From the IMG/VR virus record IMGVR_UViG_3300044796_000401: DNA of 64,000 bases. One strand, given 5' to 3'. A program made the translations under genes and the position numbers. Shown piece after piece: positions 12,280 through 37,901 of this stretch (positions are counted from its first letter, which is position 1; every line of letters begins with the position of its first letter). The notes under the pieces are model-generated. The model worked only from the letters and a program-made list of their open reading frames with translations. It did no database searches and was not told the DNA's origin. This DNA is from a virus. Taxonomy: Duplodnaviria > Caudoviricetes.

Positions 12280-12507
12280 TTAGGCGAACAGTGTGTCCGG
12301 CGCATTCGGGGCTGTGCCCTTGTACTTGGAGCCGCCGCTCGGGCCGCCACGCCCCATCGCGTAATCGACGAAGCGCTTTTCCTTGAAGTTTTCGTTGGTG
12401 CTGTGGAGGTACTTTGCAAAATGCTTGACGAGGTCTTCCCACTGCTGATTAGGCATGCGGAAAGTCCTCAGGGCATCGGCGATCAGGACGAAATGCTGCG
12501 TGCTCAT
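12280..12507 (-). CDS. Small phage hypothetical protein
   Basis: MSTQHFVLIADAL...LVKHFAKYL..TNENFKEKRFVDYA resembles a recurrent small phage family (..HF.LIA....N..F...RF), recalled from memory. Confidence 0.55.
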   Translation of the reverse strand: MSTQHFVLIADALRTFRMPNQQWEDLVKHFAKYLHSTNENFKEKRFVDYAMGRGGPSGGSKYKGTAPNAPDTLFA

Positions 12508-12580
12508 GCTCACGGCTGTTTTGTCAAAGACTCCCGATGGCGGACTTGCCAGCGGGGGTGACCTTTTTTGCAGCCTTGCC

Positions 12581-13354
12581 TTACGACTGCGGAATCTCCG
12601 TTTCTTTCGGGGCTTCCGGCTGGCCGGACTTGTCCCGGTCGGTGACCCAAGCGTCGGACCCGCCGCCTGCCGCCACGCGGGGAACATCTACTTGTTCTGG
12701 GACTTTGGGACTTCCGGTCTCGTCCCGGTCGGTGACCCAAGCATCGGAAGCACCGCCCGCAGCTTCTTTCTCTTCGACTTCTTCCTTCTCTTCGAACGGT
12801 TCATCGCCTTCCGCCTTTTCGAAAATCTCGACTTCGGGGGCCTCGCCTTCGGCGTCGACTTCCTCGACGATGTCATCGGCGACGTTCTCTTCCTTGACTT
12901 CATCCTTAAGATCGGTATAATCCTCAACAATGCCTTCGGCCTCAGCGGGCGCGGTTTCGAGGCTGACGCCCATCTGCTCGGCCGCGAACTCGATGTCTTG
13001 GGCGATGTCGTTCAACCCTTGATACGCTTCAACCAAGGCCTCTTCCAGCTTCTCCGGGCTCTCCTCGGCGATCTGGCGGAACTTCTTGCCGTATTCCTTG
13101 GCGGCGGCGACCCGTATCTTCAGCGGGGCTTCCCTGGCTGCACGAACCAAGCCGAGGTTCTCGCGGAGGTTCTCGATGCCTTCCGCATGGCTGGCGTACT
13201 TGTCGGCGAGCCGGATCAGGTGCTTCTCCAGCTTCTCGGGGGCCTTTGCGGCGACCGTGCGCATCTTGGCATATTTCCTGATTTTTTCGGTCTTGCGTTC
13301 GGCTTTGCGGGCCGCGATCTTTGCCCGAAGCTGCTTAGGTGATTGCTTTGCCAT
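12581..13354 (-). CDS. Acidic head-associated protein with two TDRD peptide repeats
   Basis: Start MAKQSPK (ATG 13354); basic N-terminus, PEKLE helical repeat, Glu-rich stretch, then two SDAWVTDRD repeats. Confidence 0.7.
   Translation of the reverse strand: MAKQSPKQLRAKIAARKAERKTEKIRKYAKMRTVAAKAPEKLEKHLIRLADKYASHAEGIENLRENLGLVRAAREAPLKIRVAAAKEYGKKFRQIAEESPEKLEEALVEAYQGLNDIAQDIEFAAEQMGVSLETAPAEAEGIVEDYTDLKDEVKEENVADDIVEEVDAEGEAPEVEIFEKAEGDEPFEEKEEVEEKEAAGGASDAWVTDRDETGSPKVPEQVDVPRVAAGGGSDAWVTDRDKSGQPEAPKETEIPQS
12632..12742. repeat. 21-nt direct repeat with 90-nt period (coding)
   Basis: GTCCCGGTCGGTGACCCAAGC at 12632-12652 and 12722-12742. Confidence 0.9.
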
Positions 13355-13445
13355 GATTATACCCTCTGTTTTAAGACTGCTATAGTTAAGAAACGACTTC
13401 GCACTCAAGTATTTTGAATACAGTCCCCATCTGTAGGGATTCAAA

Positions 13446-13931
13446 ATGAACAAACACAAACCGTGTCCTGATTGTGGAGACGACATCCCAGAAAACTTTC
13501 ATCAAGGTGCACACTACTGTAAGCCCTGTATCAGTAAACGCAGCAAAAATTGGCGGGCGAAAAACATAGGTCGTATTCGCGAAACCCATAGATTGCAGGC
13601 CCAGCGCTGGCGAAAGGATAATACTCATAGATACCGAAAATCCGATTCGGATAGAAGACAAAGAATGCGGCAAACATGCATCGTCAAACTTGGTGGAAAA
13701 TGCGTATGGCCCGAAGGCTGTTATTGGACTGACCCGAGAGCTTTGCAGATCGATCACGTACACGGGGGCGGTACCTCAGAGCGCAAACAACTAAATAGTG
13801 CCGTCGCTTTCTACAAAAAAGTTCTCGCGGATACTGACGGCAACTATCAGCTATTGTGCGCTTGCCACAATGCCATCAAGAAAATCATAAACCACGAATA
13901 CCATGCCAAAAATACCCAAGGGCACCTTTAA
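13446..13931 (+). CDS. HNH endonuclease with N-terminal zinc ribbon
   Basis: CPDC..CKPC, LGGKC..C, LQIDHVHGGG and YQLLCACHNAIK motifs. Confidence 0.8.
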   Translation: MNKHKPCPDCGDDIPENFHQGAHYCKPCISKRSKNWRAKNIGRIRETHRLQAQRWRKDNTHRYRKSDSDRRQRMRQTCIVKLGGKCVWPEGCYWTDPRALQIDHVHGGGTSERKQLNSAVAFYKKVLADTDGNYQLLCACHNAIKKIINHEYHAKNTQGHL

Positions 13932-16900
13932 CGATACTTTGTTCGTACAGACTCAAAAAACCCCTTCTTATCCGCAAAAATACCGTCCTCGTCGCTGCTC
14001 TTAAGCCGGGCGGAAGTTTTCATGGTCGTGTTCTCGGGCAGCCCGACTTGGCACGAGCCGTCGCCAACTTCCTTCATCATCAAGTCGCCGTTCGTAAAGC
14101 TCCAAACCGCCCCGCACTGACCGCACATCGCAAACCACAGATCGTCGGACGGTGCATCGCCGGGGTCCAATTCGCCGGATGACATGGGGACAACAGCCCG
14201 ATGTCCGCGGAGCTTGGTGTTGACTAGCTGTGTCAACTCCGCCGGGGGCTCCTCGTAATCAACGGGTTCATCGCTGCTCATGTGGAAATTCGGATTGGCA
14301 AGCTCGGGCAGGATCGTCTTCCTCATCGGCGCGTCTTCGCCCCGGCCGGATTGCGGGGTGATCGCGACCGCGGGCTGGCTCGGCTGGGCGGGGACAGCAG
14401 GCTGGGGCTGTTGCGCCTCGGGCTGCACGCCCTGCGACCGCTGGACGTTTTTCACCAGCATTTGCTGCGGGGTGACGGGACCAGCGCCGACTCGGTTTCG
14501 ATTGGCCCATTCGCCGGGCTTCCAGTCCCTCTTCGCCGGGTCGGGCTCGGCCTTGCGGATTTCTTCGAGAACCCCGTCGATCTTTTGCAGGTGCACGTGG
14601 ATTTCCTGCACGCTGCGCGCAAGGTACTTGTCGTCGGTGACGAAGCCCTCCAGCATCCGCTTGCCTTTTTCCAGCCACCTGTGAAACGCCGCCACGAAAT
14701 CCTCCGGCCGTGCGGCGGTCTTCGGCAGCCTGCTCGCGACTTCCGGTCCGTGCATCGAGCGGCCCTTGGCATTGAGCAGGTCCTCGATCTCCATCGCCAA
14801 GGGGTTGTTCATGCCTTCCCCGGTATCCGGCGTGCCTTCTTGCAGGCTGTGGGCGGCCTGCTCAAGCAGGTCGAGCAGCGTGCTTTCGAAATCGCCGTCC
14901 GCGCCCGTTTTGCGCGCTTTGGCTGGATCGTCTCCTTTCCTGACAATCTCGTTGTCGCCATAGGTAATATACGTTGCTGGCTCGCCGAGCCCGAAAACGA
15001 AATCCTGCAACTTCTGTTTCGCCTCTTCCACGGAACCGCACGGCCCGACTTGCGTGCCGAGGTTCAGTTCGTTGGAAGCGCCGTAGTCCGTCCATTCCCA
15101 CGTGCCTTCCCAGCCGTCGAGCTCCAGATGGCGGCTGTCGTACATCCCGCTCCATTCGATGCGGACTTGGGCTTCGAGGTCCGGCGTCGAAGCGCCTTCC
15201 TTGCGGGCGTGCGGCAGGCGTCCGGTGTCGCCCGGCGTGATCTGCGGGCGGATGCCGTCGTAGAAATCGTGCCCGATCCCGGCTTCCTTCTCGCCGTACT
15301 GCTTTTCCCAGTCCTCGTCGGACAGTTCGTCGGGCTTGCGCCACTCGATATGATTGCCGGTGATATCCTCGTACGCCTTCGCCGTTTCTTCCCATTGCTC
15401 GGACGTGACCATGGGTGGCTGCACGCGATGCGTGTCCAGCAAGTTGGCCAACGCTATCGATATGGAAGGAATGGGCTCGTCGCCGCTGGCGTAGTCGAAC
15501 GCATCCTGCAAAATCTTCCAGTCCTGCGCCGTGAGCATGCCATCCCCGCGGGCTTCGAGGAGATTAGCCGTGGCTTCGAGCAATTCCTTGTTCCCAAGTC
15601 CAAGTCCCGCTTTCTTTGCCTTGATACCCATGCTTTTCAACATATCCTTGTCCTCTTCGGAATAGCCCTCGGTCTTCGGTTCCTCCGGCTCCGCATAGAT
15701 CGTGCGCAGCTTTTTGAGGTCGTATTTGGAGAGGTATTTCTTCATCTCGTCCAAGGTCGTGCCCTCGGCGACAGTGGGCTCCCTGTTGGCAGCCATGTCC
15801 TTTTGGGACGCCTTCCACCCGTCGCTGTAAAGCCGCATGGCGAAGAGCGGGTACCTCTCGGGATACCACGGGTTCCTTCCCTTCCAGCCCAGCGAATCCA
15901 TGTAGTCGCGCATCCTGTCGAATTCTTCCCTTTGCGCTTCCCGCTCCTCTTCCTCGCGGCCGGGATGCAGGCTCTCATAGTCGGCGTCTTCCGAGCCTTC
16001 CTTCCGGGTATCCAATCCCAGGGGTCCAAGGACGCACTTGGCCGGGCGGCAGGCAAGCATCCAGTGTTCCTCGGTTGCGCCGGGCAATGTCTCGTTCCAA
16101 ATGGCGACGACTTCGCGCCCGGCAGCAGTCAAACTTTTAGCATACCCTTCGGCTTCTTCGGCGTCGCGCAAGAACGTCACGTCAAGCTGCTGTTTCTTGG
16201 CTTCGTTGAGCGTCATGGCTTTCTCTGCTTGGGCGGCACCGAGTTTTCCTGCCCTTGCCATCCCTTTGTTCATGCGCCATGCTTCGCTGCGTTCGACGCC
16301 CTCCATGTGGGGACCGCCGTTCTTGCATGGGCGGAGGTTGCATTGGGTGCATTCGAGGCACCGGGGGCAAACAAGGTGTTCCACGTCCGCCAAGCAATAT
16401 TGGCAATACTCTTTCCCCGGAACGGCTTCCTCGTATCCGCACGCGCTGCACATCGCCGCTTCATTGGGCGGGAGGACGTTCTCGCCGAACTCCGCGGTTT
16501 TCGTGTAGCGCTCGCGACATCCGTTGCAAACCTTGGTGTCCCCGATCTTCCCGCACGTTTCGCATTTCAGCTTGCCTTCCGGAGGTTCTTCGGGAGCGTC
16601 GTCGTCTTCGCTGCCTGTCAATGAACGGGCACCCGGCGCGAGCACCGGATTCGCCAGGATGCCGGGCTCGAAGTGCCCCGGAAGCAAGCGCCCGGCGTTC
16701 GTGAAATAGAAAGCCTTGTCCCCGAGCCAATCGGCGTCGGTCTGGAGCGGGATCGTCGGGTGGTCGTGCCCCTCGGACGATTCCGTGTTGACGTACGGCC
16801 TGTTGATGTCGCACTTGTCGCAATGGTAGATCGAAGTACGGCGCGGGTTGTCCGATGTCCAGCGGTGGACGAAGGCGTCCTTCACCTGCCGGAGCATCTC

Positions 16901-18091
16901 GGGGGTCAAGTTGGTCCCGTGGATAAGCTGCTTGGCGATTTTTGCGGAAGCCGTGCGTCCCGACGCCGGTTCGGGTTGCTCTTCGGCCGCGAGATTCAGC
17001 GATGCCAGCGACGCCTTGACCTTCGGCCGACGGCGGCGGAGCTTCTCCCTCTCGTGGTGGATGTTGTCGATCAGCTTCACGAAGATGTCGTCTTCGCCCA
17101 GGGTGCGGCGGTTCTCCTGGATGTACTGCTCAAGCAGCTTCGCGAGGCGGCCGATGTATTCGTAGAGCGAGGCGTTGCTCAATCGCGTTCTTTCCTTCCA
17201 CAGCGGTTCGAGGTGGCGGCGCGCTGGCATGTAGCCGGGGCGTCCCGTCCCCTCGTTCGGCGACTCCGTGGACTCGGACACCCACTCCCAGTAGATGTCG
17301 AACAGGGTGATGAACCACTTGGCGGACGTTTCGCTCTGGTGCTTCTTCAGCCACCCGTAGAAGCCGTCGCGGAATTCGCGGATGTCGTGCTCCGACTGGC
17401 GGATATCTCTCGGGATACCGTCGTAGAGTTTCGGCTGGGTAGCATGCTCTTTGGTGTCGAGGATGTTTAACTCCTCGCCCTCATCCCCCAGCTGCCACAT
17501 GCTGATCTCCTTCGGCTGCCGCTCGTTGATCCAGCCACGGATCATTTTTTTGCCCCAACTGAAAGTATCAATAAGGAACTGCGTAAGTTGCTGCGCCAGT
17601 TCCTTTTCCTTGTGTGGAAAACTCTCCTTGTTGCGCACGCCCTCGAATTGCTCCAGCACGCGGCGTTGTCCCAAATACGTGAATAGCATCTCATGAATGA
17701 GTTCGTCCTTCTCCGACGGATCAATGTTCCCTGGGAGTTTTTGCGCTACTTGCTTCTCTAAGAAACCCGCCCAATCATAGGGCTTGCCATCGGTTCCAAC
17801 CGGATAGGGGAGTTGTTGCTTGGAATGTTGCTGGTTAAATTGGTCTATGTATCCGAGGATATAGAGGTTGAAGTCCTTGTTGTAGGCGAGGTGGAATCTG
17901 ATCAGGCTTGCGAACTGGGCAAAGGCGGGGCTTACCGGAACTACCTCGGAGACCGGTCGGCCTTGCATGTCGGCGAAGCGAACGACAGTGCCATCGGAAT
18001 CGGCGACTTTGGATGCGACTCTGTAATGAACGCCGCTGATGTCGGTGACGACTTGCCCCGGCTCGTAGGAACTAAGCTTGTTGTTGGGCAT
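13928..18091 (-). CDS. Giant multidomain K-x-A-linked polyprotein (sigma-like domain, zinc fingers, small phage domains)
   Basis: About 1390 aa from MPNNKL (track start 18190). Mosaic of short unrelated domains bounded by RTAS/KIAK, KTAE, KKAG, KEAG, RKTGA and KTAA linkers. Confidence 0.75.
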   Translation of the reverse strand: MPNNKLSSYEPGQVVTDISGVHYRVASKVADSDGTVVRFADMQGRPVSEVVPVSPAFAQFASLIRFHLAYNKDFNLYILGYIDQFNQQHSKQQLPYPVGTDGKPYDWAGFLEKQVAQKLPGNIDPSEKDELIHEMLFTYLGQRRVLEQFEGVRNKESFPHKEKELAQQLTQFLIDTFSWGKKMIRGWINERQPKEISMWQLGDEGEELNILDTKEHATQPKLYDGIPRDIRQSEHDIREFRDGFYGWLKKHQSETSAKWFITLFDIYWEWVSESTESPNEGTGRPGYMPARRHLEPLWKERTRLSNASLYEYIGRLAKLLEQYIQENRRTLGEDDIFVKLIDNIHHEREKLRRRRPKVKASLASLNLAAEEQPEPASGRTASAKIAKQLIHGTNLTPEMLRQVKDAFVHRWTSDNPRRTSIYHCDKCDINRPYVNTESSEGHDHPTIPLQTDADWLGDKAFYFTNAGRLLPGHFEPGILANPVLAPGARSLTGSEDDDAPEEPPEGKLKCETCGKIGDTKVCNGCRERYTKTAEFGENVLPPNEAAMCSACGYEEAVPGKEYCQYCLADVEHLVCPRCLECTQCNLRPCKNGGPHMEGVERSEAWRMNKGMARAGKLGAAQAEKAMTLNEAKKQQLDVTFLRDAEEAEGYAKSLTAAGREVVAIWNETLPGATEEHWMLACRPAKCVLGPLGLDTRKEGSEDADYESLHPGREEEEREAQREEFDRMRDYMDSLGWKGRNPWYPERYPLFAMRLYSDGWKASQKDMAANREPTVAEGTTLDEMKKYLSKYDLKKLRTIYAEPEEPKTEGYSEEDKDMLKSMGIKAKKAGLGLGNKELLEATANLLEARGDGMLTAQDWKILQDAFDYASGDEPIPSISIALANLLDTHRVQPPMVTSEQWEETAKAYEDITGNHIEWRKPDELSDEDWEKQYGEKEAGIGHDFYDGIRPQITPGDTGRLPHARKEGASTPDLEAQVRIEWSGMYDSRHLELDGWEGTWEWTDYGASNELNLGTQVGPCGSVEEAKQKLQDFVFGLGEPATYITYGDNEIVRKGDDPAKARKTGADGDFESTLLDLLEQAAHSLQEGTPDTGEGMNNPLAMEIEDLLNAKGRSMHGPEVASRLPKTAARPEDFVAAFHRWLEKGKRMLEGFVTDDKYLARSVQEIHVHLQKIDGVLEEIRKAEPDPAKRDWKPGEWANRNRVGAGPVTPQQMLVKNVQRSQGVQPEAQQPQPAVPAQPSQPAVAITPQSGRGEDAPMRKTILPELANPNFHMSSDEPVDYEEPPAELTQLVNTKLRGHRAVVPMSSGELDPGDAPSDDLWFAMCGQCGAVWSFTNGDLMMKEVGDGSCQVGLPENTTMKTSARLKSSDEDGIFADKKGFFESVRTKYR

Positions 18092-19058
18092 ATTTGAACC
18101 GCTTTCCTTGCTCGTTGCTGAGCCAGTATTTGATTCGCTCTTCCGCGATCTTACAATATTCGGCATCCTTTTCGACACCCACAACCTCATCCCATCCCGC
18201 CAAAAGCGCCCCTATCATCTCTGATGCCACTCCCGAAAAGGGCACAAGCAAGCGGCGAGGCTTTACGCTGTTGGGCGGCAAAAGCAAAGAAGCAAGCCAG
18301 CGATTGAGTTCTATGGGCTTGATCGTGGGGTGGTCGTTATTCCCGCTAAGTCCCGCATTTTTTTCACGGATGCTTGCTTTGGCCACGTAGAAAAATCGGG
18401 ATTTTTCGCCGAGCATTTCCCCGGTCTCTTCATCCAGCATCGCATTTGCGGGATAGCGACCTTCGGGTTTGATCACTTGCGGCGTGTCGCCATTGGATTT
18501 TGTCATTCCCCACTTCTGTCCCGAGCTATCCTCCGTTCTTCGGTTCCGATTTATTGTCCGTAGTTGGGACGCATCCATTTCCAAGTCGATGGCGATTCGT
18601 CCCGCATCCACGTTCAAGGCTCCGCTGCCGAATCGCAGGGCGCAGGCATCATAGGTCAATCCCTGCCGGGGGGCGCGGAACATCAGGACAGGTTCCCAAG
18701 CTGGTTTGAGGGAGGGCGTCTTCCAGCCGTCGAATCCCTCCGCCTTGATGCTCTTGGCTTTCGGGAATCCCTGTCCGTGGAGCCACATCAGGGTGTCGAT
18801 CATCTCGAAGCCCGCGTCTTCCATCCCCGCCGCCAACCGGTGCCATGTGCGGGTTCCGCCGAACATCAAGCAAAGTGCGCCGGGATACAGGTGCGGAAGC
18901 AACGCTTGTCCCCAGACTTTGTAGTCGGCGGACTTGTCCCAGTCCTTGCCCATAAAGTTCAAGTCATACGGGGGGTCGCTGAGCATGGCGTGGAACTTTC
19001 CGCCCATGTACGACGGTGACCACGCAACAAATTTGGAGTTGACTACTTGATAGGCCAC
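18072..19058 (-). CDS. N6-adenine/N4-cytosine DNA methyltransferase (beta class)
   Basis: SDPPYDLNFMGKDWD catalytic motif; HPTIKP, VPFSGVASE and GVEKD SAM-binding motifs. Confidence 0.9.
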   Translation of the reverse strand: MAYQVVNSKFVAWSPSYMGGKFHAMLSDPPYDLNFMGKDWDKSADYKVWGQALLPHLYPGALCLMFGGTRTWHRLAAGMEDAGFEMIDTLMWLHGQGFPKAKSIKAEGFDGWKTPSLKPAWEPVLMFRAPRQGLTYDACALRFGSGALNVDAGRIAIDLEMDASQLRTINRNRRTEDSSGQKWGMTKSNGDTPQVIKPEGRYPANAMLDEETGEMLGEKSRFFYVAKASIREKNAGLSGNNDHPTIKPIELNRWLASLLLPPNSVKPRRLLVPFSGVASEMIGALLAGWDEVVGVEKDAEYCKIAEERIKYWLSNEQGKRFKYAQQQA

Positions 19059-19063
19059 GCTAT

Positions 19064-19978
19064 TTACCCCGCATACTCGAATTGCCTTCCGAAAAACTTG
19101 TATCCTTTCCCGATTGAACGCGAAAGGTTTGATCCGTACCCACCGAATTTTTCAACCGCATGAAGCAGGGACGGAAACACTTCTCCAGTATCAATGCAGC
19201 GGACGGACTTGCCGGGTTTCGGGGAGATCGTCAATGCTCGTTGTACTCCGTCGCTTATGTTTTTTCGTTGCTGTTCAGAATGCTTCTTACCTAAATGATG
19301 CTTTGTATTCCGCATCTGCAATGCCCATATTTTCCGGCGTTCGGGAGTCCACCATTCCTTGTGGCTTTGGGTTTGTTTCGCACGATACACCGGGTCAGCC
19401 CAAAACTTTTTGGAATGTCCGGATTTCCACTGTTTCCAAGCTTCGGACGCTTTACGGCCTTTTCTACCCCGAAGAGCGAGGGAAATTTTGGATTTCCATG
19501 ACAAAGAAAGAGGAGGTCTTTTATTTCCTAGTTTGGAAAGACGAATATTTTCTTTCCTCTCGGCACTAAAGATTGCCTTCTTTCCCAACTCGGATAACAA
19601 AGCTCTTGTTTCCGGAGAAGCTTTCTTACCAAGATGCGCGTTTCGATTTTTTAGTTTAGAAGCTTCAGAATGTTTGAATCCGTACATGCCGTCGCCGCCC
19701 TCGGTCATGTTGTATCCCTTCTTGGGATCGTTGGATTGATGCAAGGCAATGTGGAGTTTTTCCTTTTCGGAAAGCTCCTCAACAGTTTTAGCTCGGTCAA
19801 TTATTTCAATTCGGAAAGCATCTGGCCCGTATTTGCGGATGGCTCTGTGAAAATAACACGGACTTCCCATCTTGGCGGAATACTTATGATTCCGCCAACG
19901 CTGATCAACAGTTGGATGACTCCACTTGCCGATATAGACCTTGCTGTTGACCGTATTTGTCACACGGTAAATCAGCAT
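19064..19978 (-). CDS. GIY-YIG homing endonuclease with NUMOD3 repeats and NUMOD1 tail
   Basis: LIYRVTNTVNSKVYIG, GYNMTEGGDG, HSEAS/HSEQ and CIDTGEVFPS motifs. Confidence 0.9.
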   Translation of the reverse strand: MLIYRVTNTVNSKVYIGKWSHPTVDQRWRNHKYSAKMGSPCYFHRAIRKYGPDAFRIEIIDRAKTVEELSEKEKLHIALHQSNDPKKGYNMTEGGDGMYGFKHSEASKLKNRNAHLGKKASPETRALLSELGKKAIFSAERKENIRLSKLGNKRPPLSLSWKSKISLALRGRKGRKASEAWKQWKSGHSKKFWADPVYRAKQTQSHKEWWTPERRKIWALQMRNTKHHLGKKHSEQQRKNISDGVQRALTISPKPGKSVRCIDTGEVFPSLLHAVEKFGGYGSNLSRSIGKGYKFFGRQFEYAG

Positions 19979-20024
19979 AACTTCCTCCAGAGATTCAAGG
20001 GCTAAAGTGTTGAAACTAAGGCAC

Positions 20025-20258
20025 TTAATCTTTCAAAGGGTCGTTAGGGTCATGATCAGTTGATCCGTCTTCGGCCAGCACGGACTTGAGTACCGAAAGA
20101 TACTCGCTGTGATCCGCGAAGGCTTGGGGGTCAAGCGTGCGCCCGGCCTCGCTCTCTTGCACCTTGTCGGCGATCTTGCGGCCAGCGAGGCGGGCGAACT
20201 CGACGCCGTAAAGCGAGTTCATTGCATCGTTGTCGATTTTTGCGATCTTCTTACTCAT
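20025..20258 (-). CDS. Small acidic protein with KIA motifs
   Basis: MSKKIAKID...GRKIADKV; AGGAG upstream of ATG 20258. Confidence 0.6.
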   Translation of the reverse strand: MSKKIAKIDNDAMNSLYGVEFARLAGRKIADKVQESEAGRTLDPQAFADHSEYLSVLKSVLAEDGSTDHDPNDPLKD

Positions 20259-20344
20259 TTTCTTGGTTCTCCTAGCTAGGGATAGGCTCAAAAGCGAGCC
20301 CTACAAGGGAAAACGGTAGCTGATTTTTCTTGGGTTTGCAGGAC

Positions 20345-21922
20345 TTAGGCCCCGTAAATGGAGTATTTTCCGATCAGGGCCGCTGGCGGCACCGTCGAAG
20401 TCATGGCATCCTTGAAGGGCGGGTCCGGGATGTGGTAGGTGGCTTGTATGACCCCCTGCAAGTCGAACGCGCTGTAGCTGAACATCAGGTACCTGTTGTT
20501 GACGGGATCGAACGAGAACGAGACGATGTCGAGCAGGTCGCCGTCCACGTAGATTTGCATGTCGCGCCGGGGATCGAACGCCCCGAGGGCGGAAGACGTA
20601 TACGGCCCAGCGAGGGGCGAACAGTACAGCGCCAGCCTGCCGGGAAACGGGGCGTTGGTCCACAAGCCGGAAAGCGGCGTCACCACTTGCACCACGCTAC
20701 CGCTGCTTGACGCAAAAAGCCCTTGGGGGACGTAAATTGCCACGATGGCACGGGTTCCGGTATTCAGGCTGCTCGTGGTGTACTGGACGCTTCCCGCCGT
20801 GAGCGGCAAGCCCATGATGATGGGGACTGGGGGACTGATCCCGTCCAAGATAGCAATCGTTCCCGTAGCGGGTATGGGAGGCGAAGTCCCCGCCACACTA
20901 ATCGTAAAAGTGACCGGATCGGTAAACACGGATGGGTTCGTACTGCTTGTGACCGTGGTCATGGTCGGCTGCATGTAAGTGTACCCGTTCACCAATGTGC
21001 CGAACTGCGAATCGGGATTCGCGACGACGATATTCACCGCGCCAATGGCGTGCGCCGGGGTCACGCAGGTCAACTGCGTGGGGTTCACGAACACCACGCT
21101 CGTCGCGGACACGCCGCCGAAAGTAACCGTGCAGCCGCTTGCGAAGTCCGTGCCGAACAGGTTCGTGATCGCGGTTCCCCCGGCAATCGGGCCGCTGTTT
21201 GGCGTGCAGCCCGCGACGATCGGGGCGGGCGCAATAACGTAGTTAACTATATGCGAGAACTCCCCGGCTATGATCCATGCATTGTCAGGATTGCCGACGC
21301 CCTGAATCGTGACGACAAGGGCTGCGTTGCCCGTCGCCCCGATGCAAGCCCACAAGCTGGTTTGCCCTCCAGCGTCGTAAGTTGGGTCCCTCTCGACGAC
21401 ATCGGCAAGGTTGACGTAGATATTATTAGCATTGTCCGTGACCGTAATGCCGGAAAAAGGCGGATAAGTGTGGACGCCGTCCCAGCCGTTGTTGGAAGTT
21501 ATGTTGACGACAATCGTGTTTCCTGTTGTGGTCGGAGCCGGGAAAGTAACCGTGGCATCCAGCGGGATGGCCGGAAAGTTTGGATATGCAGGCTGTGCGA
21601 GGGGGGTTGCTTGGATGAGCCCCGGAGCATTGCCGTCCGTCTTGAAAAGGGCCAGGGCAAGCGCCAGAGGAAGAGACCCCGCCGAGTCCATGTTGGCTGT
21701 ATAGGTGGCCGCGCCCGAAGGCACGGATTGGAATACGAAGATTCCGGCTCCCGATTGCGCTCCTATGGCTGTCCAACCGGCCACCGGAGTGTAGAATGAT
21801 GCGGAGGTGCCGCCCGAAACGATGGCGAACTCCGGGTAGCCCGAAGGCGTGGCGGAAATCGCGGGATTCAGCGGGGGAACCATGACCGCCAACGTTGCGA
21901 CTTTGTCCGCCGTGCTGCCCAT
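20345..21922 (-). CDS. Ig-fold virion protein (IPT/TIG and Big_3-like domains)
   Basis: PNSGPIAGGTAIT..GTDF..G.TVTFGG...V.VNPTQLTCVTPAH (IPT/TIG); TTVTSSTNPSVFTDPVTFT...TGT..ILDG (Big_3). Confidence 0.8.
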   Translation of the reverse strand: MGSTADKVATLAVMVPPLNPAISATPSGYPEFAIVSGGTSASFYTPVAGWTAIGAQSGAGIFVFQSVPSGAATYTANMDSAGSLPLALALALFKTDGNAPGLIQATPLAQPAYPNFPAIPLDATVTFPAPTTTGNTIVVNITSNNGWDGVHTYPPFSGITVTDNANNIYVNLADVVERDPTYDAGGQTSLWACIGATGNAALVVTIQGVGNPDNAWIIAGEFSHIVNYVIAPAPIVAGCTPNSGPIAGGTAITNLFGTDFASGCTVTFGGVSATSVVFVNPTQLTCVTPAHAIGAVNIVVANPDSQFGTLVNGYTYMQPTMTTVTSSTNPSVFTDPVTFTISVAGTSPPIPATGTIAILDGISPPVPIIMGLPLTAGSVQYTTSSLNTGTRAIVAIYVPQGLFASSSGSVVQVVTPLSGLWTNAPFPGRLALYCSPLAGPYTSSALGAFDPRRDMQIYVDGDLLDIVSFSFDPVNNRYLMFSYSAFDLQGVIQATYHIPDPPFKDAMTSTVPPAALIGKYSIYGA

Positions 21923-23496
21923 TACCTAGCTCCCCCGAACAAGGATTTCTGCCCCAGCCGCAGCCTGTGGACAGGGACTTCATGGATGCCCAGCTTGCCC
22001 CAGTCCACCTTCACAAAGGTCGTCTGCGGCGCTTTCTTGTCGGGCAGGATTTCCAGCACCTTGCCCCGAGCATCGGGATTCGCGTCGAACCACACGCTGT
22101 CCCCGACCCCGATGTCTTCGAGCTTGGCGGCGAACTGAAGGCGGCGCTGGGGCGAAATGCCGAGCAGGATGTTGGCGGTGACGGTGCTTTCGTGCCCCCC
22201 GTCCCAATGCACGGTGGCATAGTTCTTCCCGACCTTCTCCACGGTGCCTTTCAACTCCATGTCCGCGAGCCAGCGGACCCTCATGCCTTTCTTGGCGTCG
22301 CGATGCTCTATGGCGGTGCGGGCCTTGGCGAGCTTTCCCCTTTCCCGCCGCACCAAGTCCCGTATCGCCGACAGGTCCTCGTCTTCTTCCGGAGACAGGA
22401 TTTCCCCGGGCTCAAGGGAGGACTTTTTCCTCGTGACCCAGTTCTTGATCTTGTTCCAGACGTTGCGCAGCTTCTCCATGTACGCGGGCGACTTCTTGCC
22501 GGGCTCTTTTATCTGCTTCCAAAGCCTGCCCAGCATGTCGGACGCGGACTCTTCCTCCTCCGGCTCCTTTTCGGTCTCGTATGGAAGCCCGGTGTGGATG
22601 TGCGGCTCGCCCTCCTCGTGCCGCCTTTTCTCCTCCTGCTTCGTCAGGTCCTCGATGTCGATCTCTTTCTCCTCGGGCTCCGTGGCTGGCTCCTTTTCCG
22701 GGGCTTCCTCCGGGACCTCGAATTCCTCCGGCTCCGGCTCCAGCGCCGGTCCTTCCCGTTCGACCACATCTTCATCGACCTTGCCCGGTGCCTTGCTTTG
22801 GTCCGTTAGCTCCTGCTCGTGCAAGAGGCGGGCCTGCTCCCCGCCCTCCAGTTCCTTGAGCAGCTTGTCCCTGACCTTCTTGTCCTTGATCTTCCGGATT
22901 TTCTCCAGTTCGTACTTCCGGCGCATCTCGTCCTGCTTCTTCCTGAGGCGCTCCGGGGTCTTGCGTTCCTCGTCCTTGTGGCGCTGGATTTCCCGCTCGC
23001 GCAATATTTTCACGATGTTGTGCTGCACGGACGGCAGGATGCGCTCGAAGACCGAGTGGACGTGCTTGCAGATCACGTAGTTCGCCCGGAGGTCGAGGCG
23101 CTCGGTCGGGGCGACGAGCTTCGGGCGCGGCGTGCCGAGCAGCCCGTCCTGCTGGTGGAGGTTCCACTGCGCCCCCCAGTACAAAAATGCCGGGCACGAA
23201 CAACTGACCTGAACGTCGAGGTCCGCCGCCTTCTGGGACTCCTGCACCTTCGTCACGTCGAACTGGATGCGCACGTCGTGGCCGGCGGGGTCGCTGTCTT
23301 TCTTGTTGCATTTCACATTGTAGTGGAGGAACAGCGCCTTGGGATTTGAGTCCAGCAGCTTTGGCGTACAGCCGGGGCGATACTTGAGACTAAACGCATT
23401 TGTACTCCGGATAATTTCGGGTAGCGTAATGGCCGTTTTTACATGTGGGTGTTTGTCCGCCAAAACCACAGGAATTGTGATGAAAAAGCCGTCCAT
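21922..23496 (-). CDS. SWIM zinc-finger protein with acidic linker and two SH3/KOW-like C-terminal domains
   Basis: VSCSCPAFLYWG...ICKH (SWIM); GMRVRW..KGTV...VHWD and VGDSVWF..GKV...VDW (SH3-like). Confidence 0.7.
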   Translation of the reverse strand: MDGFFITIPVVLADKHPHVKTAITLPEIIRSTNAFSLKYRPGCTPKLLDSNPKALFLHYNVKCNKKDSDPAGHDVRIQFDVTKVQESQKAADLDVQVSCSCPAFLYWGAQWNLHQQDGLLGTPRPKLVAPTERLDLRANYVICKHVHSVFERILPSVQHNIVKILREREIQRHKDEERKTPERLRKKQDEMRRKYELEKIRKIKDKKVRDKLLKELEGGEQARLLHEQELTDQSKAPGKVDEDVVEREGPALEPEPEEFEVPEEAPEKEPATEPEEKEIDIEDLTKQEEKRRHEEGEPHIHTGLPYETEKEPEEEESASDMLGRLWKQIKEPGKKSPAYMEKLRNVWNKIKNWVTRKKSSLEPGEILSPEEDEDLSAIRDLVRRERGKLAKARTAIEHRDAKKGMRVRWLADMELKGTVEKVGKNYATVHWDGGHESTVTANILLGISPQRRLQFAAKLEDIGVGDSVWFDANPDARGKVLEILPDKKAPQTTFVKVDWGKLGIHEVPVHRLRLGQKSLFGGAR

Positions 23497-24233
23497 TAAG
23501 ACACCCGTCCCAGTTGCCAGCCCTGCTCTATATAGGCATTCAAAAGACTGGTGGGCACCATCATTGTCTCAGTTTCGCGATGAATCCACCTTTTTCCGTA
23601 GCTGGGGTTGCTTTCTCCTGATAAAGCCTTGCTCAAGTTTTGACAGTGAATCTCAGAGAACTCCAGCCCTTTATGCGCCTCGCTCAACTTGTGTCGATGC
23701 TCTTCTGAAAGTACCTTGCCTTGATGTGCATATCTGATTTTTTCGCGATGTTCTGCGGAAAGTTTCTTGCCTCGTTGGGCTTCCCCTATCTTACGTCGAG
23801 TCTCTTCACTACGTGGCTTGCCCCAATGGGGACTATTTGATCCTCGTTTCGAATCTCCGATGTGCCTGCAATGTTCCTCAGAAAGCTTTTTTCCAAGGCG
23901 AACTTCGCTCATTCTACGACGCGTTTCTTCAGTCACAAGAGACGCACCCTCACCGCCAAGCGTCATATTGTAGCCTTTTTCTGGTTCATGGGATTGGTGC
24001 GAAAGGATGAAATGAGTCTCCATTTTCGCCAATTCATCAACGTCCTTAGCGTGATAGATCACCTCTCGTGTGAACGCTTTGGGACCGTACTTACGAATGG
24101 CGCGGGCGAAATGGAATTGACCGCCTTGGTTAGCAGCGTTGCGATGCCATTTCCATCGTTTGGATAGCGAGGTCGTTGTCTTCCCGATATAGACTTTGCC
24201 GTTTATTTTGTTGGTGATCTTATAAATCAGCAC
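23496..24233 (-). CDS. GIY-YIG homing endonuclease with NUMOD3 repeats
   Basis: LIYKITNKINGKVYIGKT, GYNMTLGGEG and repeated SEEHR/SEETR motifs. Confidence 0.9.
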   Translation of the reverse strand: MLIYKITNKINGKVYIGKTTTSLSKRWKWHRNAANQGGQFHFARAIRKYGPKAFTREVIYHAKDVDELAKMETHFILSHQSHEPEKGYNMTLGGEGASLVTEETRRRMSEVRLGKKLSEEHCRHIGDSKRGSNSPHWGKPRSEETRRKIGEAQRGKKLSAEHREKIRYAHQGKVLSEEHRHKLSEAHKGLEFSEIHCQNLSKALSGESNPSYGKRWIHRETETMMVPTSLLNAYIEQGWQLGRVS

Positions 24234-24272
24234 ACCGAAGCCCCTACAATAAGGTTCGGTAGATAAATACTT

Positions 24273-24605
24273 TCAGAAGCTCCAAGGATTGGCGTTGCCT
24301 TCCCCGTAAAACACGATCTTGATTCGACTTAGGTCCCCGGCGTAGAGGCCCATCACGATGGCCCTGCGGATGACAGTCACCTTGCAGAATTTCCGGTACC
24401 CGGAAACCGTTCGGCTGCCCTTCACATTGTTGCAGCGGTTGCAGGCGGGAAGCAGATTATTATCGCGATTCTTCCCGCCGCGGGAGCGGGGAAGGGCATG
24501 GTCCACCGTGAGGTCGTCGGGATCGGGAAAATGCCCGCAGTACCAACAACGGCCGTCGCATTTGCTTGCGGTGTGAGCCCATTGGGTTTTCCGGGGAGTT
24601 CGCAT
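24273..24605 (-). CDS. HNH endonuclease (McrA-like)
   Basis: CWYCG..TVDHALPRSRGG..NLLPACNRCNNVKG motif. Confidence 0.9.
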   Translation of the reverse strand: MRTPRKTQWAHTASKCDGRCWYCGHFPDPDDLTVDHALPRSRGGKNRDNNLLPACNRCNNVKGSRTVSGYRKFCKVTVIRRAIVMGLYAGDLSRIKIVFYGEGNANPWSF

Positions 24606-26631: not shown

Positions 26632-27591
26632 TTAGTTTTCCCCGACGTTGGCAGTCGAAGCGTAGCGTCCGTTGACGTGAAGCGCCTGAATGCCACTTGG
26701 GTTGAAGACGAGGAAGCCGAGGTTTTCAAATATGCTAAATCCTATTTGACGAAGGTCCGGACGATCCGCCGACATGACTGTCAGAGGAATACGTTCGGGG
26801 ATCACACCGAGGAACTCGGCGTCCGCCAGGATGTAGATCGAGCCGTAGCCGACCTTACGGGACTGGAGGAGCGTTGCGCCCCAGAGATAGCCCATGACAC
26901 CTGTCTTGAGCAGCTTGCGCTGAGTTTCCCTGTCGATGTTCTGTTGGGTCCACTTCAACAGGTCCGTGTAGTCGCGGGGGTTGAAGAAGACGAATGCCAC
27001 CGAGAGGTCGTGGCGCTGCACCTGCCCAAAACCGTCTGCCATCGAGTTGATGTCGATGGGGGCGTTGATGGCGATGCTCACGTTGTAAACCGGGTCGTTG
27101 GCCGACTTTGCGTTGGCGGCGGTAGCCACGGCGTCAAAGAGCCCGAAGACGTATCCGTCTTCCTGCGCGCCAACTTCGGCCTTAGCCAAGTTGAGCGAGC
27201 GGGCGACGAGATCGAACCTGCGTTCCTTGATCTGGGTGATCGGAATCATCGGGTTGGAGACGATTTCGAAGGTGGGAACAGTGACACGCTTCGGCTTGGT
27301 GACGCGGACGATGTCCCCGCCCTCTTCGCCGACGACGAATGCTTCCACGAAGGACGAGCCCGGCGTTGAGCCGACCGTCATCGCGGAAGTGTCAAATTCC
27401 TTGTCGTAGATGGGCAATGCGCCATCCGGCAGCGTTTCGACCATGAGCGCCTTGCGGGCGATACTCATGTAGTCGCGACGGCGACGGAGGGAAGGACCGA
27501 GAGAAGCAGCGAGCTTCTGGCGGCCGCCAGCGGTCTTGAGAAGCTGACCGAGCATTGCGGTTTGCTGTTGTGTGCGAGATAGATTAGCCAT
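26632..27591 (-). CDS. Major capsid protein (HK97 fold inferred; Bxz1/E3-like family)
   Basis: Size of 319 aa and position after protease and scaffold with a strong terminator. GRQKLAASL...RRDY.SIARKALMVETLPDG..PIYD...VTVPTFEIVSNP...QED parallels, from memory, the Bxz1-type MCP. Confidence 0.85.
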   Translation of the reverse strand: MANLSRTQQQTAMLGQLLKTAGGRQKLAASLGPSLRRRRDYMSIARKALMVETLPDGALPIYDKEFDTSAMTVGSTPGSSFVEAFVVGEEGGDIVRVTKPKRVTVPTFEIVSNPMIPITQIKERRFDLVARSLNLAKAEVGAQEDGYVFGLFDAVATAANAKSANDPVYNVSIAINAPIDINSMADGFGQVQRHDLSVAFVFFNPRDYTDLLKWTQQNIDRETQRKLLKTGVMGYLWGATLLQSRKVGYGSIYILADAEFLGVIPERIPLTVMSADRPDLRQIGFSIFENLGFLVFNPSGIQALHVNGRYASTANVGEN

Positions 27592-30129: not shown

Positions 30130-32304
30130 TTAAAACTCGTCGTTGCCGAGCAATGCGGATGCGATGTCGATCGGCTTCTTCTCGGAGGCAACCACGGGCT
30201 TCAGCTTCTTGATCACCGGAGTTTCCTTCTTGGCGGCTGCCTTGGGCTCTTGCAGTTCGTTGGTCTCGTCCTGCTTCACGCGCTTGAACCCGCCCTCTTC
30301 GGCTTGCTGGTTCTCGATCGCTTCGGCGAACAGATCGCCTTCGTGATCCTGCTCGTTGTCGCGGCTCTCGCCGGTAGCGGTGTCGGATTCGAACTTCTTG
30401 GCCGCCTCGCCTGTGAACGACGGGATGACTTCCATCCCCGCGACTTCGGCTGCGGTGCGGATTTCGCCAGCGATCAGGCGGGCAAGGGGATCGGAGTCCG
30501 AGCCCTTGAGGGAGAAGAAGTCTTCCATCGACGCGATCTGGGTGTCGTCAAGGGAGGCTTCAAGGCTCTCGGCCGCGGACGGCGCGAAGAACTCCTCGCC
30601 GTTCCCGGCGGTGTGCTCGTCGCCCTCATTCGCCAGCGAGGAGACCTTGTCTTCCATCTCGTCTTCGTTGAAAATCTGCGAATAGTCAAGCTCTTCGCCC
30701 TCGACGTTCTCTTCGAGAATTTCCTTCTCAAGGGCGCTGATGGCTTCCTGGGCTTCTTCGATCTTTTCCTCGACGACCATCTTCTTCTCGTCGCTGAGGA
30801 CTTCCGCGGCATTGTCTTCCACCGGGGCTTCCTCCGCTGGAGGTAGCTCGGCCGGAGGCTCGATTGCGCCTTCGTCTGTCGGGGGAACGTCCCCGATCGG
30901 GGCTTCCGCGCCTTCCGCCGGAGGAGCGTCCGTGATGCCTACCGCGGGATCGTCCGCGGTCTTGGCTGCGCCGCACTTGGCGCACTTCTCGCCGTCCGCC
31001 AGCTTTGCGCATTCCGCGCACTTCTCGGCGTCCGCCTTCTTTTCCTTTTTCTTCTCGTCCTTCTTCTCGTCCTTCTTCACGCCAGCGTCCTTGGCGGCTG
31101 GAGCGGCGGCGGCCTTCGAAGCTTCCTTGCCCTTGCCTTCGCCCTCGGATTTGTTGATCGTGTTCGCCGGGCGGTTCGCCGCTTCCGTCTGCGACTTGCC
31201 GGAGCCAGCGTCCATTTCCTTCGGCTCGGAGTGGGTGCCGCCGCCGCATCCGCGCCCGTCATTGTAAGTTTCGACTTGGGGACCGGCATCCTTGCGGTCG
31301 TCCGCGACCTTGGCGGCAGCCTTCGCTTCGCCGTTGAGTTCGGATTTGATCGATGCCTTTTCCGACTTCAGAATGGAGGGGTCTTCGAGGAGATCGTTCA
31401 TTTCGACCTTGTGGACTTGCTTGAAGGTCTCGGCGACCTTCGAATAGTGCGCATTCTTCGCCGTCTGGCGGAGCATGGCATTCAGAACCGGGGTCGGGTT
31501 CTGGAGCAGATTCGCGGCGGCACTCTTCTGTACCTCCGCTGGCGCTGAAGGCAGCATCGTCTTGGCGATGGTCCAAGCGGCAGCGACGCGCTGTTGCGCT
31601 TCTTTCTTGATCGCTTCGCGCTTCGACTTTACTTCCGCAAGCTTTTCCTTCAAAGACGGCTTGCTGGGGGTCTGGGTTGCCATGGTAGAACCTTCCTTTT
31701 TGAGGCTTGAAGGGCCGGAATTGCCCTTCCTATTAGGGGATTGAAAACTGTTTTTCTCGCTTACTGGGGATTTTGCGCTTGCCATCGGGGTTGCAACGGG
31801 GGCTGCGGGCTCTTCGACAGGTGCCGGGACAGGTTCTCCGATGGGGGCCGCATCAAGCACGGGCTCCTCAATGGGGGCTGCCTCAGGAGCCACGGGGGCT
31901 TCTGGAATCGGTGCGGCTTCGGGGGCGAGGGGCGCTGCGGGTTCCGGAGCCATGCCCAGAGCTTCCGGGCCTCCCAAAAGGTCACCAACCGGGGCTTGCT
32001 CGCCTCCAGCTATGTCGGTAATTTCGATGTCGATCTCGCCGAGCATGGTTTTGATCTCTTCGGACCACGGCCCGTCTCTGAACTTCTCCCATTCGGAGAT
32101 AAGTTGAACACCTTCCTGCATTTTGGTGATCTCTTGCTCAAGTTCCTCGCGTTTTTCGCTTAGGATGTCGAACTCCGGGCTGGTAGGAGCGTCAATTGGC
32201 GCATCGAGGGCCATCTCCGGCATGCCGGATAGCTCGTCGTCGATCACATCAAGGTCCGCTCTCTTCTTCTTCAAAACGGCTAATGCGTGCTTTAAGTTGG
32301 GCAT
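30130..32304 (-). CDS. Scaffold/internal head protein, acidic, with many K-x-A motifs
   Basis: 724 aa between the protease and decoration/MCP genes; coiled coils, Pro/Ala/Glu low-complexity tracts, and KRAD, KVAD, KKAD and KTAD motifs. Confidence 0.7.
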   Translation of the reverse strand: MPNLKHALAVLKKKRADLDVIDDELSGMPEMALDAPIDAPTSPEFDILSEKREELEQEITKMQEGVQLISEWEKFRDGPWSEEIKTMLGEIDIEITDIAGGEQAPVGDLLGGPEALGMAPEPAAPLAPEAAPIPEAPVAPEAAPIEEPVLDAAPIGEPVPAPVEEPAAPVATPMASAKSPVSEKNSFQSPNRKGNSGPSSLKKEGSTMATQTPSKPSLKEKLAEVKSKREAIKKEAQQRVAAAWTIAKTMLPSAPAEVQKSAAANLLQNPTPVLNAMLRQTAKNAHYSKVAETFKQVHKVEMNDLLEDPSILKSEKASIKSELNGEAKAAAKVADDRKDAGPQVETYNDGRGCGGGTHSEPKEMDAGSGKSQTEAANRPANTINKSEGEGKGKEASKAAAAPAAKDAGVKKDEKKDEKKKEKKADAEKCAECAKLADGEKCAKCGAAKTADDPAVGITDAPPAEGAEAPIGDVPPTDEGAIEPPAELPPAEEAPVEDNAAEVLSDEKKMVVEEKIEEAQEAISALEKEILEENVEGEELDYSQIFNEDEMEDKVSSLANEGDEHTAGNGEEFFAPSAAESLEASLDDTQIASMEDFFSLKGSDSDPLARLIAGEIRTAAEVAGMEVIPSFTGEAAKKFESDTATGESRDNEQDHEGDLFAEAIENQQAEEGGFKRVKQDETNELQEPKAAAKKETPVIKKLKPVVASEKKPIDIASALLGNDEF

Positions 32305-37600: not shown

Positions 37601-37824
37601 TCCACGACTTCGGCCGAGTAATGCAAGTCCTGAGGCGGGATGCTGACATCGAGACCCTCTTCAGGCTCCGTGGTATTGCGCCCGGCGTAGTCCTTGCCGT
37701 TCTGGGTCGTGAAATCCGGGTCCGAGTGGTGTTGGTGGGTGGCGTACTCGGGGTCTGCGTACATCTCCAGCAGGGCGTCTAACGCCTTCTTTTTGAGCAA
37801 ACCAGATTTGGAGTTGGAAGCCAT
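34648..37824 (-). CDS. Giant K-x-A-linked polyprotein (duplicated domain, two HiPIP-like Cys motifs, nucleotidyltransferase)
   Basis: Start MASNSKSGLLKKKA (ATG 37824). IGGVAL..YGYARNTLDIDL NTase motif; CxxC..C..GC twice; KKAL, KQAH, KTGA, KIAA, KEAV, RKAS, KTAS and RKAD linkers. Confidence 0.75.
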   Translation of the reverse strand: MASNSKSGLLKKKALDALLEMYADPEYATHQHHSDPDFTTQNGKDYAGRNTTEPEEGLDVSIPPQDLHYSAEVVEPHPKLEPPEGKEDAAFFKESDPAMRPVEVEREEHEFFKRSLPEYEMVRASVERPARIAKKVVSDIDETPFRAAAERYGVDYKGATKTPGTADNQYIIYNDPVSGTQFGLFVNEFSDEKVRERLNDARVRFGLPSVGAVDGGEKKDPKGTTEKEERYKQIVAEGGGLYAGTMENMVWFNSPATHGTLALKESLLTPEAVREEIGRSDADFAKRGSVLEKQAHANAPDPGEYDFEHEAHVREEMKQWAQYAEEKDNTADIKPYDPKGLYLCRDCDMRRDESDCMRVEGPISFDTGGCRLYHLGIKPETAPSMDEKFTKEEAKYGEHEGGFGCKRCEYGAEAKASDPEGRGLWCSFWRTHVVGDACCSEWDSDDEKDEQEEEARKERKTGAVLSKNFVNETERESIPKIAAQWNQLNIDNRVGWMKASLDWNFPFHASWNQLAPEQQNKLVNRIAKVSDPGYNHKEAVAIRKASGNKEQALKKAVKILGESGIGSLVIGGVALQEYGYARNTLDIDLSVSDAKKAWFVLIKNGYQADEDEEHLLDPENSELIQPMQEGRKAGFNKVPLPTPASVNTTPVYCDAATLIDMKIGGFFGGVDMGLPQSRQKDKVDAQTLIRNNQFPRDLLKGKTYEKEYETLWDILHKPPQKTSSKEALQLLTGEKDEFLDALREEKTASTKAYGMDVPLDNPASAGTEFYGAGAPLGGTPNQPVPDPEEDEEEQKAAAQEEESVVEEARIAVGVEDRESALKSASLAMSIDFHPMKWALHKLGTTEDTGWFAKSARPMQQKIELLREQLNLAPGQIESYIGGKRAAVEFHDAPKFKPPREQFRKHVDVEAERDVMEGVMDGVKQPLNAEPPRSKPLHRQFDPNINGDPESLLMQQTVPGMPLIASETMKKPKAALLRKADHYDREHQDRPASEDFASKAQTDEDEARQAFLKEGYIQQLAAESHSTPEELWKEIGQDYANEYFASKGNRIPQDWHAQR

Positions 37825-37885
37825 CCTAATAAGAGAACAAAAAGTTGTGAAAGCACAAATTGCAACTTTCCAGTATCTAAGTAGG
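37825..37885. promoter_or_regulatory. Back-to-back pair of putative phage late promoters
   Basis: Minus AACTTTTTGTTCTCTTATTAGG (37846-37825) directly before ATG 37824, and plus AACTTTCCAGTATCTAAGTAGG (37864-37885) before ATG 37902. CAGTATCTAAGTAGG recurs at 25270-25284 (minus). Confidence 0.5.
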
Positions 37886-37901
37886 AAGGAAAATTGTTGC
37901 A

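Follow-up and report, generated by a model that had tools for sequence, protein, structure and literature searches.

In this study, we analyzed a giant gene from an uncultured jumbo myophage, part of whose genome is contained in a 64,000-nucleotide (nt) stretch of DNA from IMG/VR record IMGVR_UViG_3300044796_000401 (hereafter, the window). The gene most likely occupies positions 13928-18091 of the minus strand and encodes a protein of 1,387 amino acids (aa). Structure prediction makes it likely that the N-terminal module of this protein has a sigma-like fold, and the module is probably distant kin of extracytoplasmic function (ECF)-type sigma factors and small phage sigmas, although sequence-membership tests did not place it among them. 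Three independent and individually weak lines of evidence, namely predicted structure, a protein language model, and profile comparison, agree in register and in domain order. The explanation that we favor, and to which we give an even chance, is that of a fast-evolving, beads-on-a-string protein whose N-terminal module would dock onto the core of the host RNA polymerase (RNAP) in the fashion of a sigma factor. An earlier, sequence-only reading of this DNA had placed a sigma-factor-like domain at 17110-17900 (residues ~98-360), embedded in a putative virion polyprotein. Its sigma component is supported for fold and architecture, with a sigma2-like domain, an acidic linker, and a sigma4-like domain predicted in the right order, but no sequence-family threshold was reached.

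Sigma-likeness of the N-terminal module

The N-terminal domain was modeled by AlphaFold with 20 sequences (predicted local distance difference test score, pLDDT, 75.6) and again with 119 sequences (pLDDT 87.2, predicted template modeling score 0.73). The predicted structure consists, in order, of a beta-barrel (model residues 5-53), a helical domain (53-189), an acidic linker that appears in the model as a low-confidence, extended segment, and a second helical domain (226-351). In an exhaustive structural comparison with 48,161 representatives of the PDB, seven sigma factors were among the top 50 matches of the first model and nine among those of the second, with S. aureus sigma-B aligned across both domains (147 residues). 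Since no more than 46 distinct PDB sequences match a profile of ECF sigmas, and almost all of these are sigma factors, nine of 50 represents a large enrichment. When Foldseek candidates were re-examined, approximately 10 group-1 sigmas from holoenzyme structures were found to align colinearly from region 2.1 to region 4.2. For example, model residues 105-338 aligned with residues 383-613 of E. coli sigma70 over ~149 residues, and Thermus sigma-A was likewise colinear. The high overall root-mean-square deviation of these alignments is due solely to a different arrangement of the domains. In Foldseek searches, proposed with the sequence-only reading as a check on the domain, neither model matched anything in the PDB or BFVD at E<=0.001. 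M. tuberculosis SigH ranked second and then 31st in these searches (E 0.24-0.87).

The language model pointed to the same families. For the whole module, the nearest clusters were viral, ~210 aa in length, and carried Sigma70_r2, Sigma70_r4, or GerE (score 0.92-0.93). Residues 88-228 alone gave Sigma70_r2 in 82 of the 100 nearest named clusters (0.90-0.91), and residues 258-395 alone gave Sigma70_r4, Sigma70_r4_2, or GerE at scores of lead level (0.81-0.85). In the hhalign comparison with 32 diverse ECF sigmas, the strongest local alignment (P 0.012) covered 62 columns in the register of regions 2.1-2.4. It pairs DE-x-IH of the module with ED-xx-Q of region 2.1/2.2, QF with a conserved F, and QLT-x-FL with FSTWL of region 2.3, and it places E-x-SM at the start of our linker opposite the 'vSLD' with which the sigma2-sigma4 linker begins in ECF sigmas. 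The same register is found in the structural superposition.

ECF (group 4) sigmas such as E. coli RpoE, M. tuberculosis SigH, and CnrH provide the closest comparison in layout, as they share the order predicted here of sigma2-like domain, acidic linker, and sigma4-like helix-turn-helix (HTH). The longer stretch DE-x-IHEMLF ... QF is in register with their ED-xx-QE-x-F ... F (regions 2.1/2.2), and the predicted module superposes on sigma2 at 2.2 A over 64 residues. Unlike these sigmas, the module has no Pfam Sigma70_r2 or r4 score, contains insertions inside sigma2, is preceded by ~130 extra residues (the barrel and two helices) and followed by ~1,000, and is encoded by a phage head-block gene.

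Several results in addition to the Foldseek E-values weigh against a sigma identity. The hhalign probability was just 3.6% with the 32 ECF sigmas and fell below 1% (P 0.065) with a 118-sequence, phage-dominated ECF alignment. None of 119 members of the family matched Sigma70_r2 (PF04542) or Sigma70_r4/r4_2 (PF04545/PF08281) at E<=0.1, and the N-terminal domain matched no PDB sequence by phmmer or profile search. Moreover, the relatives of this phage would have no need of a second sigma, as they already encode a canonical ECF sigma. In the protein studied here (P0001), the Sigma70_r2 and r4 models found no match even at E<=10, and the scan of the 119 N-terminal domains against Pfam yielded scattered zinc-ribbon matches from insertions and nothing else.

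The missing sigma matches among the 119 members would suit a non-sigma protein, in which a generic barrel, a helical bundle, and a winged-helix DNA-binding unit form either an internal head or ejection protein that binds the phage genome (for condensation, end protection, or piloting) or a DnaD/ParB-like organizer. The head-module context is in keeping with such a role, as are the many zinc ribbons and the label 'ssDNA-binding Zn-finger/Zn-ribbon topoisomerase 1' that the Joint Genome Institute (JGI) gives to two homologues. However, DnaD has the reverse domain order, with its winged helix first, and it is sigma chains, not DnaD or ParB, that dominate the match lists and are colinear over both domains. 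The division of language-model neighbors into r2 and r4 by domain and the agreement between hhalign and structural registers also argue against this explanation, which we regard as rather unlikely.

If the module does dock on the host RNAP core as a sigma does, the invariant DE-x-IHEMLF helix would be placed at the site of contact between region 2.1/2.2 and the beta-prime clamp helices, the acidic linker would be the counterpart of a region 3.2-type linker, and the HTH domain would take the position of sigma4. The outcome could be that promoter specificity for the phage is conferred or that host sigmas are blocked. The barrel may provide a second contact with RNAP, and the remaining ~1,000 aa, with their zinc modules and conserved islands opened by K-x-A, might act as targeting or regulatory cargo. 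The predicted barrel fold is a generic one, resembling SH3 barrels of the Tudor, KOW, and EF-P types, including those of the RNAP binders UvrD (Tudor), NusG (KOW), RapA (N-terminus), and Mfd. In a shape search of the ESM Atlas, only the barrel resembled the Tudor-like domains of RapA (template modeling score <0.4). A complex predicted between the sigma2-like part and residues 200-350 of E. coli beta-prime scored 0.33, as compared to 0.14 for the best control, and gives no information either way.

Motifs, relatives, and layout of the protein

The motif strings quoted in the sequence-only reading were all found in the minus-strand translation of 13928-18190, the longest open reading frame (ORF) of the region (1,420 codons), along which residues are numbered here. 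EKDELIHEMLF corresponds to residues 160-170 (17681-17713), VLEQFE to 178-183, LTQFLIDTF to 202-210, EISMWQLGDEGEELNILD to 228-245 (17456-17509), and RRHLEPLWKERTRLSNASLYEYIGRLAKLL to 324-353 (17132-17221), while KVAD, KAS, RTAS, and KIAK occupy residues 61-64, 392-394, 412-415, and 417-420, respectively. The quoted motifs fall in the best-conserved blocks of the family, as judged from 20 close and ~130 representative homologues, and at the sequence level they exceed what chance would be expected to give. Residues invariant among the 20 include D162, I165, and M168 of 'DELIHEM', N242 and L244 of 'NILD', and W331, T335, and Y345 of the last motif. The same reading was correct in embedding the domain in a larger protein of several modules, but it erred in taking KVAD as the upstream boundary. 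Residues S60-K61 are invariant and lie within a beta-strand of the barrel, in a block with pLDDT of ~96, and since this strand is confidently folded, KVAD does not mark a domain boundary.

A word-indexed search recovered 19 homologues of 1,132-1,940 aa on contigs of up to 243, 454, 448, and 894 kb, and a profile search of 1.8 billion representatives recovered 131 from metagenomes at E<=1e-3, among them stand-alone N-terminal-domain proteins of ~360-480 aa. The N-terminal 365 aa, common to ~130 cluster representatives, several of which are on phage contigs of 170-900 kb, constitute a family absent from Pfam and PHROGs. No match was found in 50,697 records of cultured phages by megablast (DNA) or tblastn (protein). 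The gene is present as a single copy in each of two IMG/VR relatives searched, one of which is rated complete. Among the 20 homologues, conserved positions cluster in residues 36-400 and in a CCHH module (416-514). Of 36 homologues, 34 keep their modules in colinear order, indicating that shuffling is minor. Occasional permutation was observed in the other two; a short DWKPGEW module, for instance, lies near the C-terminus of P0001 (1217-1238) and between the N-terminal domain and the CCHH module of homologue P0017 (510-531). In another homologue, P0003, a CxxC-x-G-x-G zinc ribbon resembling the DnaJ central domain is inserted midway along the acidic linker between the sigma-like domains (alignment columns ~310-350), and the linker therefore tolerates a folded insert.

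The start of the gene was assigned to M34 (ATG at 18091) rather than to the beginning of the ORF, since the homologues and an ESM Atlas record both start at the equivalent residue, an AGGA-type Shine-Dalgarno (SD) sequence precedes this ATG, and the gene then has a 20-nt overlap with the end of the methylase gene upstream, including its stop codon. The same observations suggest translational coupling to the upstream gene. The modules of the protein and the neighboring genes are listed in Table 1.

Table 1. Positions of the giant gene, its predicted modules, and other genes of the window.
Feature	Position	Strand	Basis
Giant multi-module protein gene	13928..18091	-	ORF list, homologue starts, SD
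N-terminal SH3/Tudor/KOW-like beta-barrel, residues ~40-88	17927..18073	-	
Sigma2-like helical domain, residues ~88-227 (core 140-226)	17510..17929	-	language model, hhalign
Conserved acidic linker, residues 228-260 (E-x-SMWQPG...EE-x-NILDTEEH)	17411..17509	-	model, conservation, hhalign
Sigma4-like / winged-helix HTH domain, residues ~261-387	17030..17410	-	structural alignment, language model
Orphan CCHH module, residues 416-514	16649..16945	-	conservation in 20 homologues
Cysteine-cluster (zinc-ribbon-like) region, residues ~540-630, conserved K564-T-A566	16301..16573	-	Cys count, weak match
Long acidic C-terminal part, residues ~650-1420	13928..16243	-	alignment occupancy, composition
Downstream partner gene (helical, then acidic, with repeated SDAWVTDRD peptides)	12581..13354	-	homologue comparison
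Inserted DNA methyltransferase	18072-19058	-	Pfam/PHROGs
Inserted GIY-YIG homing endonuclease	19064-19978	-	Pfam/PHROGs
Ig-like (TIG + Big_3_5) protein, upstream neighbor	20345..21922	-	Pfam
Capsid gene	26632-27591	-	95%-identical relative has weak Phage_capsid_4 match
Tail sheath gene	43127-46762		

The sigma2-like domain holds the strongest motif of the family, KDE-x-IHEMLF, together with QLT-x-FL-xxx-F. Beyond the sigma-like domains, the CCHH module is the best-conserved block of the protein, with a mean column identity of 0.74 across the 20 homologues and invariant C457, C460, H475, and H477 in a C-x2-C ... H-x-H arrangement (CDKCD ... GH-x-HPT). It had no match in Pfam, NCBIfam, or PDB sequences, the last of these searched by phmmer and by profile. 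Residues 400-650 contain 15 Cys, and the cysteine-cluster region matches a double zinc ribbon weakly (E 0.019). The C-terminal part is largely lineage-specific, with 18% D+E and an alignment occupancy of 0.1-0.5 over residues 650-950, and is interspersed with short conserved islands at 968-996, 1110-1158, and 1233-1310. Searches of the whole protein and of four pieces of it against Pfam, PHROGs, and NCBIfam assigned P0001 to no family. The combination of a barrel, a sigma-like module, a CCHH module, zinc ribbons, and a long variable tail, in a head-block gene accompanied by a conserved partner, is an architecture that was not found in family libraries or in a limited literature search.

The head-gene block and the question of virion delivery

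The giant gene lies inside the head-gene block, on the same strand as and downstream of the capsid gene. In L016, a relative on an 894,233-bp contig (JGI Ga0374055_0000025), the order is a gene for a 741-aa protein, capsid, small genes, a Big_3_5 Ig-like gene, small genes, the giant gene, and a partner of ~320 aa. A similar order occurs around the giant gene in relative L001 and around a distant, 459-aa form in L014 and L015, and a Big_3_5 protein is encoded upstream of the family member in all four. Synteny of the capsid, Ig-like, family, and partner genes also extends to a distant, 362-aa form. The capsid protein of L016 is 95% identical to that of the window, and if its contig is neither a concatemer nor a duplicated assembly, L016 would represent an exceptionally large phage genome. 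The methyltransferase and GIY-YIG genes, which separate the giant gene from the Ig-like gene, appear to have been inserted there. L016 is free of endonuclease and methylase insertions, and the methylase is also not at this position in L001 or L006; L001 has a NUMOD3 endonuclease there. The window also holds many GIY-YIG and HNH homing endonucleases and a glycan island. A scan of 12300-24500 for sigma70 promoters and terminators gave hits at chance level.

The gene's membership of the head-gene block makes packaging of the protein in the head and its delivery from the capsid to the next cell a serious possibility, which we place somewhat short of even. The sequence-only reading had gone further in proposing a virion polyprotein, and on this point the evidence is circumstantial: head-module synteny and the K-x-A motifs at module starts are in its favor, but KVAD lies inside a folded domain and K-x-A is not enriched in the giant protein, where seven occurrences compare with 7.1 expected from shuffled sequences. 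The motifs themselves are well conserved. K417-x-A419 is found in 20 of 20 homologues, K564-x-A566 in 19, K968-x-[AGS] (K968-E-A970) in all 20, and K/R1233-x-[AG] in 17, and homologues have K-T-A-Q-G-S-G opposite the K-T-G-A at residue ~1094 of P0001. Each conserved K-x-A comes after a variable linker, just where a conserved island begins. Additionally, two head-module ORFs, of 724 aa (30130-32304, minus strand) and 1,147 aa (34648-38091, minus strand), contain more K-x-A, often as K-x-A-D, than shuffled expectation (19 vs. 10.8 and 16 vs. 8.0, respectively). This excess could reflect the site recognized by the prohead protease or an oddity in the composition of coiled-coil scaffolds.

From these features it is possible to construct a scenario in which the giant protein is a head-packaged polyprotein that the prohead protease cuts at K-x-A, so that a freed, N-terminal sigma-like fragment would be injected with the genome, give the incoming DNA promoter specificity, and reprogram host RNAP before phage expression begins. 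The gene is ~5-8 kb after the capsid gene, in the head block and on the same strand, in every relative inspected, and its translational coupling to the upstream gene, the conserved K-x-A at island starts, an invariant x-[TLI]-A401 just past the sigma4-like domain, and the K-x-A excess in the two neighboring ORFs would all fit such processing and delivery. So would its rapid evolution relative to the capsid protein, and a sigma produced with the late genes would be most useful in the next cell. Precedents for delivery exist in the N4 virion RNAP, T4 Alt, and the multiply processed inner-body proteins of phiKZ. Nevertheless, no cultured relative was matched in phage records, K-x-A is at expectation in this protein, KVAD is within a folded strand, the conserved K-x-A could equally serve docking, and the scenario rests on a sigma likeness that is itself predicted. 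We therefore consider it quite improbable. If true, it would amount to a third strategy beside early promoters for the host sigma and injected polymerases.

Another feature of the locus is the gene directly downstream. ECF sigma genes are typically followed by the gene for their anti-sigma factor. The partner in the window consists of a basic, helical N-terminal half and an acidic tail with two SDAWVTDRD-type repeats, and its product is 62% identical to that of the gene after the homologue in L001, 43% in L016, and 46% in L013, where it follows a stand-alone, 362-aa form. Since the partner accompanies the sigma-like gene even in that short form, a functional pair is suggested, in which the partner might be anti-sigma-like or a chaperone. 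It matched no anti-sigma family in NCBIfam or Pfam scans. In a comparison in which the capsid proteins share 95% identity, the giant proteins share 39% (vs. P0017) and the partners 43%; judged from these sequences, the cassette of giant and partner genes appears to evolve fast.

The conserved partner and the stand-alone forms of 360-480 aa are also what would be expected if the protein were an intracellular sigma or sigma decoy that is never packaged and works inside the cell that makes it, either in very late transcription or in host shut-off, with the zinc-rich part as a cis-regulatory extension. ECF sigmas with C-terminal regulatory extensions and Cys-rich domains are described in two reports (PMC8999054; PMC7826278). 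However, the extension here is ~1,000 aa long, mostly non-conserved, acidic, and unlike known regulatory extensions, the partner is without an anti-sigma family match, and placement in a head module is unusual for a regulator. This explanation is, in our estimation, unlikely.

Comparison with known phage systems and implications

Phage-encoded sigmas include T4 gp55, which acts with gp33, gp28/gp34 of SPO1, and gp36 of phiEco32. The present case is similar in that a phage without its own RNAP would carry sigma-type factors to redirect that of the host, and the nearest language-model clusters are viral sigma proteins of ~100-230 aa. In a complete, 332-kb IMG/VR relative, one copy of the family gene and one canonical ECF sigma were found, with no match to Rpb1_2 or Rpb2_6, and since multisubunit RNAP domains were not detected, these phages appear to depend on host RNAP. 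In contrast, known phage sigmas are small, free-standing products of early or middle genes and are not known as virion components, whereas here the sigma-like module heads a giant protein encoded in a structural module, and a canonical ECF sigma coexists with it in relatives. That sigma (Sigma70_r2 + r4_2) was observed in relative L010 at 1087-1818 on the minus strand (IMGVR_UViG_3300033405_000002), and its closest kin are mostly on other huge-phage contigs, including two of 263,031 and 447,784 bp, exactly the lengths of those bearing the homologues P0012 and P0020. Within the window, the ECF hidden Markov model built for this study had no match, and no canonical ECF sigma was found. 'Group 2' jumbo phages have been reported to encode minimal and RpoD-like sigmas (PMC7824862).

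Among virion-delivered proteins, the inner-body proteins of phiKZ undergo cleavage by the prohead protease at many sites. Like these, T4 Alt, and the virion RNAPs of N4 and of phiKZ/AR9 (PMC7598289), the giant protein is large and encoded with structural genes, and multi-site processing coupled to delivery would be paralleled by the conserved K-x-A that punctuates its modules. Unlike it, those systems deliver a polymerase or an enzyme and in no case a sigma. The polyvalent proteins of phages and conjugative elements (Iyer et al., 2017, as cited in PMC7824862) are also giant and multi-domain, with variable module content and a proposed entry into the cell with DNA. The enzymatic and anti-restriction or other anti-defense domains by which the class is defined were not detected in the 1,420 aa by Pfam, PHROGs, or NCBIfam.

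Should the module work as a sigma, it would represent a sigma lineage that current family models have missed, fused to a giant, variable protein among head genes. Its placement raises the idea that promoter specificity, rather than a polymerase, might be delivered from the capsid. A sigma of this kind would also bring a fast-evolving gene for host takeover into the biology of these uncultured phages. If the module is instead no sigma, the family would still be a widespread, unannotated, and conserved component of the head block of these phages.

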